DNA of 64,000 nucleotides, taken from the NCBI GenBank assembly GCA_963666485.2, contig CAXXUO010000002.1, positions 576,001 to 640,000 on the forward strand, written 5' to 3'. A program made the position numbers and the translations under genes. The stretch's first letter is position 1, and each line of letters opens with the position of its first letter. The notes beneath the pieces are model-generated. The model ran no database searches. It had not been told where the DNA came from and worked only from the letters and a program-made list of their open reading frames with translations. This document shows positions 20,966 to 63,428 of this stretch, piece by piece. Source of the stretch: Syntrophorhabdaceae bacterium. Its GTDB lineage: Bacteria > Desulfobacterota > Syntrophorhabdia > Syntrophorhabdales > Syntrophorhabdaceae.

Positions 20966-21067
20966 GGTTCAAGGTTCAAGGTTCAAAGACAAAAAAAGAA
21001 CCGGGATAATGCAAAACGCTTTCGCAGTTTAGGGGATCTTTTAACCTTGAACCTTGAACCTTGAACC
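20966..21067. repeat. Cassette: (ggttcaa)x3 ... (ttgaacc)x3-4, inward-facing, short spacer only
   Basis: Read directly between the convergent ispB and glgC stop codons. Confidence 0.9.
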
Positions 21068-29868: not shown

Positions 29869-29951
29869 TATCGCTCCGGCATCGGGTATTCCGACTTCAT
29901 TTAGGTATCATAAAATAAAGAAGAAATGGAAGTGAATTTTCCTGCCACCCC

Positions 29952-30302
29952 CGCCGTCATTCCCAACCACTCCCCGTCATTCCCAACCACTCGCCGTCAT
30001 TCCCAACCACTCGCCGTCATTCCCAACCACTCGCCGTCATTCCCAACCTCCCGCCCGTCGGCATCCCCAACCTCCCGCCCGTCATTCCCAACCACTCGCC
30101 GTCATTCCCAACCACTCGCCGTCATTCCGGCGAAGGCCGGAATCCAGTGTCTTTAATTTCTTCCTTTCGTTATGACAATAGATTTGATATCTTCATCTAG
30201 TTCAGTGCCTGAAGAATTTTGTCTGGATCTTTCACCTGGCCTGTTAGAGGGCAATAAAGACACTGGATTCCGGCACCCAGAGGGTACCCGGCCGGAATGA
30301 CG
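29952..30302. repeat. Eight ~20-nt tandem REP heads (cgccgtcattcccaaccact) followed by an inverted REP doublet (30120-30302)
   Basis: Read directly; the ninth unit is a full REP, cgtcattccggcgaaggccggaatccagtgtcttt. Confidence 0.9.
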
Positions 30303-30335
30303 GGTTGAGAGATTCTCGTTTGTAATGGGACCAGT

Positions 30336-30731
30336 ATGACCGAAGAATACAGCAAGCTGATCACCGACCATTTTGAGAACCCGCGCAATTGCGGGACCAT
30401 GGAAGGCCCTGACGGCGTCGGGCGCGTCGGCGACCCTGACCAGGGGGATTACCTCACGGTGTTTATCAGGGTCGAGGACACGGTCATTAAAGACGTTAAA
30501 TACCAGACACGGGGCTGCCCCGTATGTGTCGCATGCGCAAGCATGATGACCGGGCTTGCCATCGGGTCGAACCTCGACGACGCCATGACGATCGAGGGCG
30601 AGGATATCTCGTCTGCCTTCGGGGGTTTGCCGGAAGATAAGATGCACTGCGCGAACCGTGCGGCAAAAGGTATCCAGGAAGCCGTTATCTCGCACGTCTA
30701 CGGCCGGGCGGGTGTTTCTTCAAAAAGCTGA
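30336..30731 (+). CDS. IscU/NifU-N-type Fe-S scaffold-like protein
   Basis: YSKLITDHFENPRNCG, GCPVCVACAS, KMHCA; the usual first Cys (xCGD) reads QGD here. Confidence 0.8.
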   Translation: MTEEYSKLITDHFENPRNCGTMEGPDGVGRVGDPDQGDYLTVFIRVEDTVIKDVKYQTRGCPVCVACASMMTGLAIGSNLDDAMTIEGEDISSAFGGLPEDKMHCANRAAKGIQEAVISHVYGRAGVSSKS

Positions 30732-33292: not shown

Positions 33293-33459
33293 GGTTCAAG
33301 GTTCAAGGTTCAAGGTTCAAGGTTCAAGGTTCAAGGAAAAAAAATCAAAACCTTGGGTCCCGGGTCAAGCCCGGGACGATGATTTAAAACATTTTCAATT
33401 AAGTGAATAGAAAAAGGGTAATCTGTTCGCTTTGAACTTTGAACCTTGAACTTTGAACC
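33293..33459. repeat. Cassette: (ggttcaa)x6 ... single REP (33351-33380) ... (ttgaacy)x4
   Basis: Read directly between the convergent MFS and QueF-like genes. Confidence 0.9.
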
Positions 33460-57112: not shown

Positions 57113-58483
57113 TCAGGCGGGTACGGTGATATCGTATTCTTTCAGTTTCTGCCGGAGGGTCGGGCGGGATATTCCCAGGATGTCACACGTTTTGCCGAAA
57201 TGCCACCCGGTGTATTCGAGGACCCTCAGGATATGCACCTTTTCGACGTCATGCAGGGACATCGATCCAGGATGGCTTGCCGCCGCATCCTTCCCGGCCG
57301 GCGGGCCTTTCTCGAGCAGCGCCGCAATGAGTTCATCGAGGATCGCCTCGCCCAGGGTGGAGATGACACCCCGCGTCAGGACATTTTCGAGCTCCCGGAC
57401 ATTGCCGGGCCACTCATAATTGAGCAGCCTTTCCATGGCCCTCTCTTCCACCCGCTTTATAGAGCGGCGCAATTCGCCGTTTATCTTCTTGAGGAGGTAC
57501 TGGACCAGGAGCGGGATGTCGCTTTTGCGCCCGCGAAGCGGGGGGACCCTGATCATCGCGACGCTCAGCCGGTAGAAAAGGTCTTCGCGGAACGTCCCCT
57601 CCCCCACCATGTGCCAGAGGTCGCGGTTCGTCGCCGCAATGACCCGCGCGTTCGACCTCAGGCTTCTTTCGCCGCCGACATGCTCGAACTCTTTTTCCTG
57701 GAGAAATCGCAGGAGCTTCGCCTGGAGCTCGAAGGGGATCTCGCTCACCTCGTCGAGAAAGATCGTCCCCTCTCCCGCGAGCTCGAACTTCCCTTTTTTC
57801 GTCGCGATCGCCCCGGTGAAGGACCCTTTCTCGTGGCCGAAAAGCTCGCTCTCAAGGAGCGTGCCGACGATAGACGAGCAGTTTATCGCAAGGAACGGCG
57901 CGTCCTTGGACGGGCTGTGATAATGGATCGCCTGGGCGATCATCTCTTTGCCTGTCCCTGTCTCGCCTTCGATGAGCACGGTCACCTTGTTCTCCGACAG
58001 GATGCCGATCGCCTTGAATATCTCCTTCATCACCCGGCTCTTGCCGATGATCTTCCCCTTCTCATACGCCAGCGACGGATCGAGCGAGAGGGCGTTCGTC
58101 ATCGTCCCCGGCGCCGCCGCCCGGGCCGCGCGCACGACTGCCTTCTCCAGCTCCTCGATATCGATAGGCTTCGGTATATATTCGCAGGCCCCGTACTTCA
58201 TCGCTTTTATCGTCGTGTCCATGTCGTGGAAGGCGGTTATCATGATGACGTTGTTCTTTTTCGAACCCTCGTGGAAGCCTTTCAGGACCTCGAGCCCGTC
58301 CTTGTCCGGCAGGCGGATGTCCAGTATGACGACATCCGGCGCGAATAATTCGTTCTCGGCTATGGCCTCCGCCGCCGTGGTCGCGCATGCGACATCATAT
58401 CCCTTTTCCGAAAAGAACATTTCCAGGGATTCTAGCAATGACCTTTCGTCGTCGACGATGAGTATCTTCTTTTTTACCGGCAT
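57113..58483 (-). CDS. sigma54-dependent NtrC-family response regulator
   Basis: REC (ILIVDDE, LDIRLP), GETGTGKE, GSFTGA, FREDLFYRL, WPGNVRELEN, Fis HTH. Confidence 0.95.
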   Translation of the reverse strand: MPVKKKILIVDDERSLLESLEMFFSEKGYDVACATTAAEAIAENELFAPDVVILDIRLPDKDGLEVLKGFHEGSKKNNVIMITAFHDMDTTIKAMKYGACEYIPKPIDIEELEKAVVRAARAAAPGTMTNALSLDPSLAYEKGKIIGKSRVMKEIFKAIGILSENKVTVLIEGETGTGKEMIAQAIHYHSPSKDAPFLAINCSSIVGTLLESELFGHEKGSFTGAIATKKGKFELAGEGTIFLDEVSEIPFELQAKLLRFLQEKEFEHVGGERSLRSNARVIAATNRDLWHMVGEGTFREDLFYRLSVAMIRVPPLRGRKSDIPLLVQYLLKKINGELRRSIKRVEERAMERLLNYEWPGNVRELENVLTRGVISTLGEAILDELIAALLEKGPPAGKDAAASHPGSMSLHDVEKVHILRVLEYTGWHFGKTCDILGISRPTLRQKLKEYDITVPA

Positions 58484-59997
58484 CAGGCCTTCCCGACAGG
58501 TATGGCCATCGACAGATGGACGCCGCCTGTCCGTTTCGATGTAATATCGACGCTCCCCCCGTGGGCCTCGATCACCTTCTTGACATTCCACAGGCCGAGA
58601 CCGGTCCCTTTCTTCTTGTTGCTGAAAAAGGGGTCGAACACGTACGGGAGGTCTTCCTGCGCGATGCCGGGCCCGTTGTCGTCGATCGCTATCTCGACAT
58701 GCGACATGCTCCGCGGGGCATATTTGGTGGATATCCCGATCCACCCGTTCGCAGGAACGGCATCGATGGAATTTTGCAGCACATTTATAATGGCCTGCTC
58801 CATCTTGTCCTGGTCGATGAGGATATTCGGGATGGACCGCGAAAATCTCCTGCGGACATCGATACCCTTCTCCTGGAACCTCACGGTCATCATCTCGAGG
58901 CACGACGCGATGACGCGTTTGAGGGATGTGGACTTCAGGTTAAGGCGCAGCGGTTTCGCGAAGTCGAGCATTTCGCTCAAGATCCTCTCGAGCCGCGATA
59001 TCTCCTCGGTCATGATCTCCATGCGCCGCTTGTCGTTCCCGCTGAACTCCAGTTTCTTGAGCAATATCTGGATATTCATCTTCACGGACGAGAGCGGGTT
59101 GCGGATCTCGTGGGCAAGCGACGTCGTCAGCTGCCCGATGTGCGCGAGGCTCTCCGACTCGCGGACCTTTTTCTCCATCTCGACCCTCTCCGTGATATCC
59201 CGGCAGATGCCGGCGGCGGCGGTCTTTCCCCGGTACACGATAAGCTTGACCTTGTTCTCCGTCGGGAGCGCCCGTCCATCCCGGGTCCGGCGGGAATACA
59301 CATAAAGGTCCTGGGCATGGCCCACTTCGACGCGCCGCTCATACAGCTTCTTCACTTCCGACCGTGATTCCGGTGAGATGAAATCGACGTAAGGCCTCCC
59401 GATCACCTCGGCGACCGTGTAATCATGGAGGTCGCAGAACGCCTTGTTCGCAAAGACAATGATCCCGTCCTGGTTGACGAAATACCCGTCGTTGATATCC
59501 TCCACAAGCACGCGGTACTGGGCCTCCGATTCCGCCAGTTCCCGTGTCCTCTTGTCGACCTGTTCCTTCAGGTCCTGTGCATGTTCCCGGATCTGTTTCT
59601 CATGAAGCTGCTGGAAATTGTCGCTGAACCGCGTGATCGTATAGTAGAGGCACTCATTGACCCGTTCGAGCGCCTCCTTCATTTCCCGTTTGCCAAGCTC
59701 CCTCGCCAGCACCGGCGTCGCCACCTTCCGGAACATCTCGTACGCGCCCTGGACCTCCGACAACGAGAAACCCCCCATAAGCCGTATCCCCGTGATCCAC
59801 CGGATGTGGCAATCGATCAGCCGGTAGTCCCGCTCGACCAGCACCGCATAACTCGCATCGAACGCCGCCGCAACAGTAATGTACAGCTCCTCTTTCGGCC
59901 GTGTGCTGTACCGCGGCCCGTTCTCCATTTTAAGACGGTCGATCCATTCTTCGATCAACTCGTCACGGTGCCTTCTCAAAATTTCAGCGATATGCAT
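58483..59997 (-). CDS. PAS sensor histidine kinase with N-terminal RsbRD-like helical domain
   Basis: PAS, AHEIRNPL, N box, DNGPGI, PFFS, GTGLGL; no TM segments. Confidence 0.92.
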   Translation of the reverse strand: MHIAEILRRHRDELIEEWIDRLKMENGPRYSTRPKEELYITVAAAFDASYAVLVERDYRLIDCHIRWITGIRLMGGFSLSEVQGAYEMFRKVATPVLARELGKREMKEALERVNECLYYTITRFSDNFQQLHEKQIREHAQDLKEQVDKRTRELAESEAQYRVLVEDINDGYFVNQDGIIVFANKAFCDLHDYTVAEVIGRPYVDFISPESRSEVKKLYERRVEVGHAQDLYVYSRRTRDGRALPTENKVKLIVYRGKTAAAGICRDITERVEMEKKVRESESLAHIGQLTTSLAHEIRNPLSSVKMNIQILLKKLEFSGNDKRRMEIMTEEISRLERILSEMLDFAKPLRLNLKSTSLKRVIASCLEMMTVRFQEKGIDVRRRFSRSIPNILIDQDKMEQAIINVLQNSIDAVPANGWIGISTKYAPRSMSHVEIAIDDNGPGIAQEDLPYVFDPFFSNKKKGTGLGLWNVKKVIEAHGGSVDITSKRTGGVHLSMAIPVGKA

Positions 59998-60018
59998 GTT
60001 TGATTGTAGCAAAAAAAG

Positions 60019-60580
60019 GGTTCAAGGTTCAATGTTCAAGGTTCAAGGGTAAAAAAAGCGGGGGGATGTTGGTCGTTGCGGATTTTATTCCGCTTTGAAA
60101 AGTAATATTAGGAAAAAGGAGGTCACGTGTGGCGAATGATATGTTTGAAGATTTGAAGATGTGGCAGGAGGCGAGGCAATTGACGGGAAAGATTTATGAG
60201 CTTACCAAAAAGCCCCCATTGTCAAAGGATTTTGAAATGATAGGTCAGTTGAGGCGAGGACTGATTTCAATAACCTCAAATATTGCAGAGGGATTCGAAC
60301 GCGGAGGCAACCGGGAGTTTATCTATTTTTTATCAATAGCAAAGGGATCTTCAGGTGAAGTTCGATCGCAGCTGTACCTGGCATTGGATCAAGGATACAT
60401 AGAAAAACAGGAATGCGAGCAAATAGTAAATAGCCTTAAAGTTTTATCATCAATGATAGGCAATTTCCTAAAATACTTAAAAGACTCCCATTATAAGGGC
60501 TCTAAATTCAAAAAGCCCGCCGCCCCCCGGTAAATACCGCGAATTGTTTTACCTTGAACTTTGAACCTTGAACCTTGAAC
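60019..60580. mobile_element. Heptamer-bounded cassette carrying a four-helix-bundle gene
   Basis: (ggttcaa)x4 at 60019-46 and (ttgaacy)x4 at 60552-80 flank an AT-rich ORF; mobility is inferred. Confidence 0.6.
60129..60533 (+). CDS. Four helix bundle protein (23S rRNA IVS protein / Avd-like family)
   Basis: FEDLKMWQ, QLRR...SITSNIAEGFER, FLSIAKGSSGEVRSQL; SD AGGAGG. Confidence 0.93.
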   Translation: MANDMFEDLKMWQEARQLTGKIYELTKKPPLSKDFEMIGQLRRGLISITSNIAEGFERGGNREFIYFLSIAKGSSGEVRSQLYLALDQGYIEKQECEQIVNSLKVLSSMIGNFLKYLKDSHYKGSKFKKPAAPR

Positions 60581-60617
60581 GGGGCATTATCGAAGTATCG
60601 ATAATGCCCCGGTTTTT
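60580..60617 (+). terminator. Intrinsic terminator
   Basis: cggggcattatcga-agta-tcgataatgccccg followed by ttttt. Confidence 0.75.
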
Positions 60618-60620
60618 CGC

Positions 60621-60842
60621 CTATTTCCTCGTCCCCTGGTTCGGGTTGACCGGTGTCGGTTTCGGAACCTCCGGTACCTTCACATCTTCTATTTTCTTCC
60701 CGGCCTGGCTCTCGAGCTGCTGCAAGGCCTGTCCTTTCTCTTTCTTCGGCGCATTATCCGCCGCAAAAACCTCGCTTCCTGCAAACACGAGCCCAAAAAT
60801 AACCAGCGCCGCCGCAAACATCCTCACCATTTTCCTTTTCAT
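60621..60842 (-). CDS. Small secreted protein
   Basis: Signal peptide, Lys/Pro-rich mature part; SD GGAGG. Confidence 0.65.
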   Translation of the reverse strand: MKRKMVRMFAAALVIFGLVFAGSEVFAADNAPKKEKGQALQQLESQAGKKIEDVKVPEVPKPTPVNPNQGTRK

Positions 60843-60944
60843 CTCTCTCCTCCGTATGTTTTTTTGTTCATACACTATATGACACAGGCAGACAGAAAAA
60901 TGTTCCAAAAAAAGGGTGGACCATTTCAGTCCGCCCCTTATTTG

Positions 60945-60978
60945 TTAACCTTGAACTTTGATCCTTGAACCTTGAACC
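60945..60978. repeat. Heptamer array (ttgaacy)x4 just after the cmk-like stop
   Basis: Read directly. Confidence 0.85.
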
Positions 60979-60988
60979 GTCTTTTCGC

Positions 60989-61729
60989 CTAAAAGACCGC
61001 CGCTCTCCGTCCCGACATTATCTCCGGTTTCGCCGGCGTATCCAGCTTGTACCTCCGTATCATCTCGTTCCCGATCAGCTTCGCCGCATCCTCGTACGTG
61101 ATGAGGTCCGTATTTATTACTATATGATAGATCAGCGGATCATCGATGTCCGCGTCGAAATTGTCCTTTATATACCGTTTCCGGCCGTCATCTTTTTTCT
61201 TGATATATTTGGCGGCATCCTTCTCGTTGTAGCCGAACGCCTTCATCGCCTGCTCGACCCTTTTCTCGAACGAGCCGATGAGCCGTACGTGAAAAACATT
61301 GGGCATGTCCTTTGTCACGAGGTTTGCGCCCCTGCCCACGAGGATGCAGTTCCCGATCTGCGCCAGGCGCAGTATTGTCGCGTTCGTCCTTTCGACGAGC
61401 GACCAGGTGGACGGGTGCAGGCCGATGAATTCCTCGAATGCGTCGGTCACCGAGCCCTTGTGGTCTTCCTTCATGAACTTTTCCACATGTCCCTTGAGAT
61501 TGAACACCTCGAGCACCTTCACGACGAGCTTCTGGTCAAAGACGGTCCATTCCTCGTGGGACGTCGTCTTCTCCTGCAGGTATTTCACGAGCTCGGACGA
61601 AACGGTCAGGCCGCCCGCCCCCTCAGAACGCGAGATCGTGATCGCAGGCTTTAACTCTGCCTTCCCCTTCTTCCCGAAATGACGTTCGATGTACGTTTCA
61701 CACTTGTCAGACGTTATGTTTTCCCACAT
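60989..61729 (-). CDS. Cytidylate kinase-like family protein
   Basis: ITISRSEGAGG, ILVGRGA, HVRL, YHIVINT. Confidence 0.85.
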   Translation of the reverse strand: MWENITSDKCETYIERHFGKKGKAELKPAITISRSEGAGGLTVSSELVKYLQEKTTSHEEWTVFDQKLVVKVLEVFNLKGHVEKFMKEDHKGSVTDAFEEFIGLHPSTWSLVERTNATILRLAQIGNCILVGRGANLVTKDMPNVFHVRLIGSFEKRVEQAMKAFGYNEKDAAKYIKKKDDGRKRYIKDNFDADIDDPLIYHIVINTDLITYEDAAKLIGNEMIRRYKLDTPAKPEIMSGRRAAVF

Positions 61730-61870: not shown

Positions 61871-62293
61871 TTAAAGAAGTTTTATAAAGTCGGCAGGGGT
61901 GAGTATCCTGGTCCCTTTATAATGTCTGACATCGAGCAGCGCCCTGTCGCCCGTAACCAGATGCCCGGCACCGGCGCTCAGGGCACAGGAGATGAACATG
62001 TCATCATCAGGATCAGCGCATACCCCGCGTACCTTTTCACTTATTATCACAACCTCGAAATAAGGCAGGACCTCATCTTCGATGAGAAAAGTAATTTCAT
62101 CCCGGGTCAGCGAAAATTTAGGGTACCATAGAGTGTCAACGAGTTCCTGAAAGGTTTCGCGGGACAGGACAGGGTTTATCCGGGCATCCCTCAAGGAGGC
62201 CCGGATCTCCGACATCGTACCGCCGAAGATAAGGGCCGATATCAGGACATTTGTATCGAGGACGACCTTTATTTCTTTCTCCTTCTCGACCAG
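61871..62293 (-). CDS. PIN-domain toxin (VapC-like); non-canonical start
   Basis: VVLDTNVLISA, DPDDDMFISCA, LVTGD..LL; only CTG (62293) or ATA (62272) are near the domain start. Confidence 0.85.
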   Translation of the reverse strand: MVEKEKEIKVVLDTNVLISALIFGGTMSEIRASLRDARINPVLSRETFQELVDTLWYPKFSLTRDEITFLIEDEVLPYFEVVIISEKVRGVCADPDDDMFISCALSAGAGHLVTGDRALLDVRHYKGTRILTPADFIKLL

Positions 62294-62508
62294 CGGACGG
62301 CATCCGCGACATCGTTTCGATCTATTCCCAGTCTTTCCATCTTGCTCCGTATTCCCTCGACAGATAACGAAACCGGAGATATTCTGACCGGTGTAAGGAT
62401 TATCAGATTGTCCTTTATAACGATGTCGAAATAATCGGTGTCGGGAAACCTGTCCGCGATCTCTTTGGGCAAGGTAACCTGGTTCTTCGATGTTTTCTTT
62501 GCAAGCAT
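62269..62508 (-). CDS. AbrB/MazE-type antitoxin
   Basis: MLAKKTSKNQVTLPK; SD AGGAGG; upstream of the PIN gene. Confidence 0.88.
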   Translation of the reverse strand: MLAKKTSKNQVTLPKEIADRFPDTDYFDIVIKDNLIILTPVRISPVSLSVEGIRSKMERLGIDRNDVADAVRWSRRRKK

Positions 62509-63065: not shown

Positions 63066-63418
63066 AGCGGTTCCACGTTCCAGGTTCCACGTTCCATGAG
63101 AAAAGCGAAGATTTGGCACAACGTCTGTACTCAAACTGAGCACGATTGTTCTCAATTTGAGTACAGACATTTAGTGATGCCGTCATCCCGGTGCTTGACA
63201 CCGGAATCCAGGGTTTTGCATCTCTTTTTGACGTTGAACGGTTGTCAGAGGAAGGGGACGTCCTTAAGAAAGTAAGTAACTCGGTTAGGGGTAAAGAATG
63301 TAAGAATGGTCCATTGAGTCATTGTGGGGAGTTTCTTACTTTCTTAAGGACGTCCCCTCAGTCTTTTACGTGATCTAAGGTTTTTTAGCTTTGAACCTTG
63401 AACCTTGAACCTTGAACC
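63063..63418. repeat. Composite cassette: (gttccac)n, hairpin 63123-63168, REP 63181-63215, 30-bp IR 63253-63358, (ttgaacc)x4
   Basis: Read directly between convergent stop codons. Confidence 0.85.
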
Positions 63419-63428
63419 TTTTTTTAAA

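Follow-up and report, generated by a model that had tools for sequence, protein, structure and literature searches.

A four-helix-bundle gene enclosed by its own family of inverted heptamer arrays: a candidate repeat-spreading cassette in a Syntrophorhabdaceae bacterium

In a Syntrophorhabdaceae genome, a gene for a small four-helix-bundle protein of the PF05635 family is enclosed by two inverted arrays of heptamers, and arrays of the same kind occur hundreds of times without the gene. We observed the anatomy of this cassette, the exclusive enclosure of PF05635 genes by such arrays, the match between repeat unit and protein clade, five phased G residues in the arms, a fixed polarity and distance to stop codons, and gain or loss, flips and moves of the cassette among relatives. 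Our preferred explanation, to which we give about an even chance, is a self-contained cassette whose predicted homopentamer binds its own arms and keeps the repeat family spreading behind host stop codons.

The window, that is, the whole stretch of DNA that was analyzed, comprises 64,000 nt of Syntrophorhabdaceae bacterium assembly GCA_963666485.2 (CAXXUO010000002.1:576,001-640,000, forward strand), and positions are given in the window unless a contig is named. The genome is 99% complete. The left arm (60011..60050, + strand) consists of an A-tract, four GTTCAA units at 7-nt spacing (60020, 60027, 60034 and 60041) and a fifth in-phase G at 60048. The four-helix-bundle gene (60129..60533, + strand; PF05635/TIGR02436) encodes 134 amino acids from a GTG start and is antisense to both of its neighbors. 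AGGAGG at 60117-60122 was graded as a good ribosome-binding site, and the GC content of the ORF is 41.5%, compared with about 55% for the genome. The right arm (60549..60581, - strand) contains four units inverted relative to the left arm, with TTGAAC at 60554, 60561, 60568 and 60575. The first-pass annotation had placed the ORF between inward-facing (GGTTCAA)x4 and (TTGAACY)x4 arrays. The positions read from the sequence bear this out, with small deviations: the third unit of the left arm reads TGTTCAA, and the last unit of the right arm ends with G, not Y. In RNA, the two arms are predicted to pair and to enclose the gene with a stem of about 28 bp; the fold has a z of -2.74, and none of 100 shuffles was as stable.

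The motif AAAAGTAATAT (60098..60108, + strand), inside the left arm, probably represents the -10 region of a promoter that belongs to the cassette itself. A AAGTAATA core was seen by eye upstream of the gene in 14 of the 19 genus loci, in two protein clades. A sigma-70 scan did not pick up the motif. A promoter inside the left arm would make expression of the gene possible in either orientation of the cassette. The PAS histidine kinase gene on the left (58483..60012, - strand) lies outside the cassette; it and the gene on the right, for a small protein without a Pfam match (60621..60842, - strand), are host genes and served as synteny anchors. A terminator-like hairpin (60580..60611), a consensus match only, lies directly outside the right arm, before the stop codon of the small gene. 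A lone arm of the same family (60951..60978, - strand) is flanked by a terminator-like hairpin (60914-60936) on one side and by the stop codon of a cytidylate-kinase-like gene (60989) on the other. A search of 59900-61100 against Rfam gave nothing near a gathering score. On the left arm's minus strand (60003-60032), a TTGAAC hexamer stands 18 nt before an extended -10-like TACAAT that faces the histidine kinase start. An antisense arm is the nearest 5' neighbor of 153 genes, and thus arms may supply -35 boxes; the promoter-scan count for such boxes was at chance level (2 compared with 1.4).

The protein matched PF05635 (E 2.6e-33; 114.8 bits, curated cut-off 33.8) and TIGR02436 (E 1.6e-32; 111.9 bits, cut-off 24). 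Its predicted model has four helices (pLDDT 90.7) and resembles XCC0516 (2GSC, TM 0.80) and BT_0352 (2RLD, TM 0.74), whose structure entries contain five chains each. By analogy with these two proteins, and with what the accessible part of a Coxiella study describes (PMC4990558), we infer that the 134-aa protein is a homopentamer. No catalytic domain was found in it by Pfam, NCBIfam or fold comparison, and no transposase was found within the cassette by Pfam or NCBIfam. In the 99% complete genome, neither the reverse transcriptase family RVT_1 nor PF01797 gave a match; both results count against the cassette explanation.

The model also matched Avd, the accessory protein of diversity-generating retroelements, weakly (4DWL; TM 0.71, E 0.03, 10% identity). 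The relation of the family to Avd, which had been put forward in the first-pass annotation, holds at the level of the fold only. The likeness to Avd lies in the fold and in the presumed pentamer, whereas the identity is about 10% and there is no template region or variable gene. A diversity-generating retroelement is recognized by a reverse transcriptase beside avd and by TR/VR repeats; this arrangement is not seen here, the neighbors being the histidine kinase gene and the small gene.

Across the genome, 634 period-7 arrays were detected, compared with 8, 6 and 4 in three shuffles. Two unit families, GTT (328) and the looser GGC (295), account for 623 of the 634; the unit lists of these families were drawn from the arrays themselves, which counts against the cassette explanation. 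According to a simple in-house gene caller, 618 of the 623 family arrays are intergenic. Arm pairs lay in 71 spacers between convergent, 103 between co-directional and 17 between divergent genes, the background numbers of such spacers being 248, 982 and 371, respectively. As side observations, three runaway arrays were found in genome G000 (C1:407392-407585, C4:299442-299747 and C1:413025-413173; 28, 43 (43-44) and 19 units). Among the runaway arrays, one has an alternating 14-base pattern and one an 8-base spacing. These arrays likely arose by slippage after installation.

The genome possesses two PF05635 genes, the one at 60129-60533 and a second paralog at C4:146882-147271, which sits between CGGCTAA-type arms of the GGC family. 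Genes enclosed by inward arms of one family within 150 bp numbered 2 among 3153 (3151 called genes plus the two PF05635 genes, which the caller had missed and which were added by hand). These two are the PF05635 genes, one within GTT-type and the other within GGC-type arms. None of the 3151 called genes was enclosed, and the 28 adjacent pairs more than 200 bp wide contained no further tightly enclosed ORF. Same-family pairs within 700 bp faced inward in 192 cases and outward in 13, whereas 255 of the 623 arrays were unpaired. Thus, the co-occurrence of four-helix-bundle genes and arrays in a fixed orientation, for which the first-pass annotation had proposed a genome-wide check, was found for both genes.

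Could it be mere chance that the gene shares an intergenic space with one of the many repeat pairs? Arms are common, since about one stop codon in ten (310 of 3151) has an arm behind it. Against a coincidence, 0 of 3151 called genes are enclosed, compared with two of two PF05635 genes, and inverted flanks recur at foreign loci. We fetched 190 related loci and kept 152, including both loci of the present genome; 35 were dropped as partial, duplicate or short-flanked, and 3 had no match. An inverted repeat (score of at least 15) joins the flanks at 108 of the 152 loci and at 0 of 233 shifted windows. In a draw from the phylum, HMM-picked loci had inverted flanks in 22 of 28 cases (30 were picked, of which 2 were short), compared with 0 of 52 controls. 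These two results and the exclusive enclosure of PF05635 genes refute coincidence, to which we leave a negligible probability.

On a quick tree of the related proteins, the unit follows the protein clade. Seven-base units were found in 120 of the 152 rows, and the rest have 8-9-base units or weak arms. GTT/GTC units belong to the clade of gene 60129-60533, whose members come from Acidobacteriota, Verrucomicrobiota, Bacteroidota, Nitrospirota and other groups. Units in the second paralog's clade are GCT/GCG/GTA and end in G, and a third clade has GCTRTCA. One sub-clade near gene 60129-60533 (L013-L031, L101, L103, L104 and L119) carries 8- and 9-base units around the same GTTCAA/TTGAAC core; the core can thus be kept at a changed spacing. 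In raw counts, covariation with unit positions was seen for residues 16, 56, 79, 80 and 83. After correction for kinship, no residue-to-base pairing was significant among about half of 16 traits, with 4-7 independent pairs per trait, which counts against the cassette explanation. No conserved partner gene was found (277 neighbors in 195 clusters, the largest of 9), which counts against the cassette explanation. The related copies are co-directional inside gene runs in 83 of 126 cases. Eight Acidobacteriota loci (L032, L035, L041, L044, L050, L051, L055 and L078) share the same two flanking genes, which we take to be efflux-pump genes, and differ in their units.

A GTT arm opens with an A-rich lead, which is followed by four units in most cases (209 of 327) and by an incomplete fifth. 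In the unit profile GTTC(A/C)AN, positions 1-4 and 6 are fixed at 97-100% and position 7 is free (G in 49%). Of 301 GTT arms, 203 had five in-phase G anchors, which is likewise the commonest number at the related loci (77 of 219 arms). Paired arms belonged to the same subfamily in 94 of 106 cases (51.5 in shuffles, maximum 64). We considered and rejected copying of the arms from each other, since their complementarity is no better than in within-subfamily shuffles (stem identity 24.57 compared with 24.47 of 27, 44 pairs). Fixed and free unit positions, together with a shared subfamily that brings no extra complementarity, are expected for binding sites and not for copies.

How the cassette might work is suggested by the number of anchors, by the fixed and free unit positions and by the match between unit and clade. 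The putative pentamer would bind its own arms with one subunit per repeat unit, over five phased units. In Avd, as far as the accessible text describes it, all five protomers contact one RNA element, whose bases lie in crevices between protomers (10.1101/2023.10.23.563531). This hold on one RNA element and the polarity of the arms to transcription make single-stranded binding probable; the arm may be bound as single-stranded RNA or DNA, its bases being read between protomers as in Avd. Bound arms would then be substrates for host recombination or repair and could give rise to flips, hops, deletions and new arms, the new ones being installed at A-rich sites after stop codons. The cutting and joining would presumably be done by host enzymes. 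A further-reaching version, which we consider possible but doubtful, is an undescribed class of enzyme-less selfish element: a pentameric ring that reads five phased heptamers on nucleic acid that is transcribed and single-stranded, recruits host repair or recombination and, throughout the genome, writes arms specific to its paralog 5-6 nt behind stop codons. If it is true, bacterial heptamer repeats and ORF-bearing rRNA intervening sequences (IVSs) would be footprints of such elements, and exchanging the paralog would change which repeat is written.

Of the arms located at most 30 bp downstream of a stop codon, 310 are in the sense and 16 in the antisense orientation. Among strict GTT arms with a stop codon within 400 bp, 72 of 189 begin 5-6 nt after the stop. 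The stop codon ahead of the arms is TAA in 100 of 134 cases, compared with 42% genome-wide. The A-rich lead accounts for part of this association: a stop triplet is also found there in 45 of 132 arms that have no called stop codon. A role of the interiors as host terminators was rejected, since the median fold z was -0.08 when GTT arms were paired and -0.51 when they were unpaired, and hairpins occur in a minority.

This sense polarity (310:16) and the peak at 5-6 nt would also be accounted for if the arms were host RNA signals, such as RNase III stems or stability and stalling elements, and the protein a domesticated RNA-binding regulator that acts on these transcripts and on its own message, spread and flips being side effects. 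REPs within 15 nt of a stop codon stall ribosomes, according to the accessible part of one report (PMC12306157). The stem of the Coxiella IVS is cut by RNase III in vitro, again in the accessible text (PMC4990558); an RNase III gene match is present in our genome, and the cassette arms pair in predicted RNA. However, the 255 unpaired arms (of 623) cannot form a stem, the same site carries different families or none in congeners, and the position of the gene is not conserved. In addition, some 600 sites rebuilt per species would still require an installing process. We therefore judge a host regulon of this kind unlikely.

The gain, loss and movement of the cassette were seen by comparison with relatives. 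The gene lies directly beside the histidine kinase gene in 0 of the 11 relatives that have the kinase ortholog. Filled and empty alleles had been proposed for search in the first-pass annotation, and an armed allele without the gene was indeed found at the cassette site: in G007, a decayed gene-less arm pair lies between the kinase gene and the small gene. G011 has short arms at the kinase site, and its orthologous gene is located beyond the cytidylate-kinase-like gene in the opposite direction. Broken gene copies were found at this far site in G003 and G014. Two successive inversions between neighboring arms may have moved the gene across the cytidylate-kinase-like gene. In the window, 61871-62508 is occupied by a PIN-domain gene and a small upstream gene, likely a VapBC-type toxin-antitoxin pair; this is the position of the four-helix-bundle cassette in G011.

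Flips in place with both flanks kept were observed twice, in G008 and G016 compared with G012, and in G016, G002 and G001 compared with G018. A shift by one gene was observed in G004 and G001 compared with G012; together with the case of G011, shifts occurred at two sites in the genus. An apparent third flip (G004/G001 compared with G012a) was rejected, since the gene had moved past one neighboring gene there and kept its direction. In a related strain (run X5), the cassette is at the same place in a stretch about 85% alike; thus, movement is infrequent, which counts against the cassette explanation. An empty allele in X5 at 90% likeness was rejected, because the gene is present at 80% likeness. 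Run X6 confirmed the junction of gene, arm and small gene. The 'skips' joints were rejected as evidence of excision, as their sides are short and derive from other arm pairs. Repeats of at least 5 bases flank 7.5% of pairs and 7.5% of shuffles, so that no target-site duplication was detected at that length; a 2-bp duplication would be below detection. This negative result counts against the cassette explanation.

Gene-less pairs in the window were found at 20966..21067 (3+3 units, between two convergent stop codons), at 33293..33459 (6+4 units with one REP-like palindrome inside) and at 63069..63422 (a GTTCCA-type left arm and a GTTCAA-type right arm); the first two are as the first-pass annotation had described them, and the third, like the lone arm at 60951..60978, had escaped it. 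At the 20966 site, both host stop codons are conserved in five relatives, and the interiors are unrelated. The gap holds GTT arms in G002, GGGCTAT-type arms in G011, a GGTTAT-type arm in G017, ACCAATA-type arms in G006 and none in G007. In L207 and L212 (G006), both of them orthologous empty sites, the ACCAATA-type arms have an apparently reversed polarity compared with the GGTTAT family. The 33293 gap measures 190 bp here, compared with 15 bp in G011 and 3 bp in G017. As side observations, REP-like palindromes and a longer multi-copy insert are nested in or beside arm pairs (36 of 192 pair interiors; window 29880-30400), and 29880-30400 also holds tandemly repeated units of about 18 bases.

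The empty pairs for the most part have no interior in common and hence are not simple deletion copies. Because most interiors are unique, 255 of 623 arms are unpaired and different families occupy one site, arms appear to have been installed repeatedly, beyond what deletion would leave behind. Post-stop sites appear, from these comparisons, to be occupied again and again by whichever family is active. The first-pass annotation had suggested a gene-carrying element with empty derivatives that fill intergenic spaces. Gene and arrays do belong together, the armed empty site in G007 and the flips and moves at arms agree with such an element, and some pairs are copied; for the empty derivatives the support is partial, given the mostly unique interiors, the unpaired arms and the differing families at one site.

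The few copied pairs bring in another reading, which we hold to be improbable: that the arms are a self-propagating repeat of the MITE or REP type, which slippage, gene conversion or some unrelated transposase would spread, with the gene as a passenger and the unit-clade match due to co-inheritance. An inner flank is shared with a dispersed arm by 70 of 623 arms, many of them via nested REP-like repeats or the partner arm, and a few empties are true whole copies (C1:905761 and C1:943752, about 93% alike beside each arm). Separately, five dispersed GGC arms (C2:446729, C2:470307, C2:532192, C4:31157 and C9:223650) share a 50-base flank and a terminator-like hairpin; judged by these sequences, this arm-plus-terminator unit is recently copied. 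Both the whole copies and the five-copy family would suit a passenger gene. So would the slippage displayed by very long homogeneous arrays (28 and 43-44 units), the arrays without a detected gene and the failure of a residue-base code to survive kinship correction among about half of 16 traits. Moreover, inverted repeats alone can explain flips via host recombination. Against a passenger gene, no other cargo is enclosed. The same protein family stands between many unrelated units in many phyla, the five-anchor mode holds across units, and neither fixed MITE-like termini nor a duplication was found. In addition, 20 of the 27 listed coding differences to the X5 strain (which come from 40 of 123 differences) fall at third codon positions (p 2e-5), which shows purifying selection at the sequence level.

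A cassette that keeps its repeat family spreading, as we prefer, would lead to arrays that track the paralog present. GGC arrays (at least 10 matches) were found in 3 of 3 genus genomes with an ortholog of the second paralog at 70% or more and in 2 of 16 without it (p 0.010; 0.039 without the present genome), the genomes being kin. Seven relatives that have an intact ortholog gave 11-188 GTT matches, and nine that lack one gave 1-138 (p 0.022, with overlapping ranges; two relatives with broken genes were left out). Since the genomes are kin and mostly fragmented, these p-values overstate the association and the gene absences are soft. The other paralog of G007 has CGTAAAT arms, and its unit gave 151 matches in G007 compared with 0-2 in four other genomes. 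In the phylum draw, in which S23p/TIGR02436 genes were found in 86 of 151 genomes, a generic five-anchor pattern gave at least 3 matches in 49 of the 85 genomes with the gene and in 8 of the 65 without it, and at least 10 matches in 30 of 85 and 3 of 65, respectively. Besides the overlap of the GTT ranges, three results count against the cassette explanation. The unit of G013 occurs only in the arm of its own gene, with no copies elsewhere under the pattern used; all 18 genus relatives have GGTDAT arrays, whether or not a gene was detected in them; and G073 has 99 array matches and no gene match. In G017 (L117, C14:21196-25327), 15 of 18 GGC matches cluster within about 2.6 kb of a GGC-clade gene. 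This cluster reflects either spread in cis at short range or the recent import of an island.

Several parts of the cassette have counterparts in print, which we compared as far as the accessible text of each paper extends. The S23p ORF-bearing 23S IVS of Coxiella burnetii has terminal inverted repeats that form a 28-bp stem around the ORF, with 3-4 tandem GACAGAT heptamers, variable in number among strains, upstream of the ORF (PMC4990558); in that text, the heptamers are handled as a local feature. The protein family, the stem-forming inverted repeats around the ORF and the heptamers are common to both. In contrast, the present cassette lies between protein genes and antisense to them, the genome's own 23S gene (C1:198705-201709) is without an array, the gene has a good ribosome-binding site and is under purifying selection, and about 300 gene-less arms exist. 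Since it lies outside rRNA, the cassette is IVS-like in build and not an IVS.

The GGGAATC heptamers of Xanthomonas and Nostoc have a four-unit mode and 70-75 inverted pairs per genome, lie in sense within 50 bp after stop codons and in antisense before start codons, and are attributed to G-quadruplex formation (Rehm et al. 2015, PMC4692102, accessible part). Our arms resemble the Xanthomonas repeats in the four-unit mode, the pairing and the polarity to stop codons, whereas GTTCAAN contains no G-tract; GG forms when position 7 is G (49%), and four G-tracts are not reached. No link to a four-helix-bundle gene was found in the accessible part of that paper. Geobacter metallireducens has paired tandem hepta- or octanucleotide sites, the partners lying on opposite strands and a variable distance apart (Aklujkar et al. 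2009, PMC2700814), and Beggiatoaceae have TAACTGA direct repeats (PMC4679880). With the cassette arms they share 3-5 tandem units, several families per genome and a position fixed to gene ends. In the accessible text of both papers, the repeats are read as regulator binding sites or RNA elements and no protein is named; 'helix bundle' and 'S23' have 0 occurrences in the Beggiatoaceae main text.

In REP/RAYT systems and MITEs, one gene is flanked by cognate repeats, hundreds of gene-less copies are intergenic, and families are keyed to paralogs. Like REP/RAYT, the present gene is flanked by cognate repeats with hundreds of gene-less copies near stop codons. Unlike REP/RAYT, the enclosed protein is PF05635 and not Y1_Tnp, and the arms are tandem heptamers of variable number and not palindromic REPs; unlike MITEs, the arms have no fixed terminal sequence or target duplication. 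No published link between the S23p/TIGR02436 family and heptamer arrays was found in a search that covered main texts, mostly of openly accessible journals. Thus the parts are known, in the accessible texts on the Coxiella IVS and the paired repeats of Xanthomonas and Geobacter, and the system linking them is apparently unpublished.

Such a system would join two loose ends, the function of the S23p/TIGR02436 family and the origin of the heptamer repeats of Xanthomonas, Nostoc, Geobacter and Beggiatoaceae. With just two paralogs, each with an arm unit of its own, the genome would provide built-in controls for a cross-binding assay. A small ring protein with an exchangeable repeat specificity that targets DNA behind stop codons would be of practical use. 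Matches to the protein family were obtained for 0 of 50,697 phage records and 29 of 72,556 plasmid records. Three plasmid copies were inspected by eye, and both arms were present in two of them and the downstream arm alone in one.
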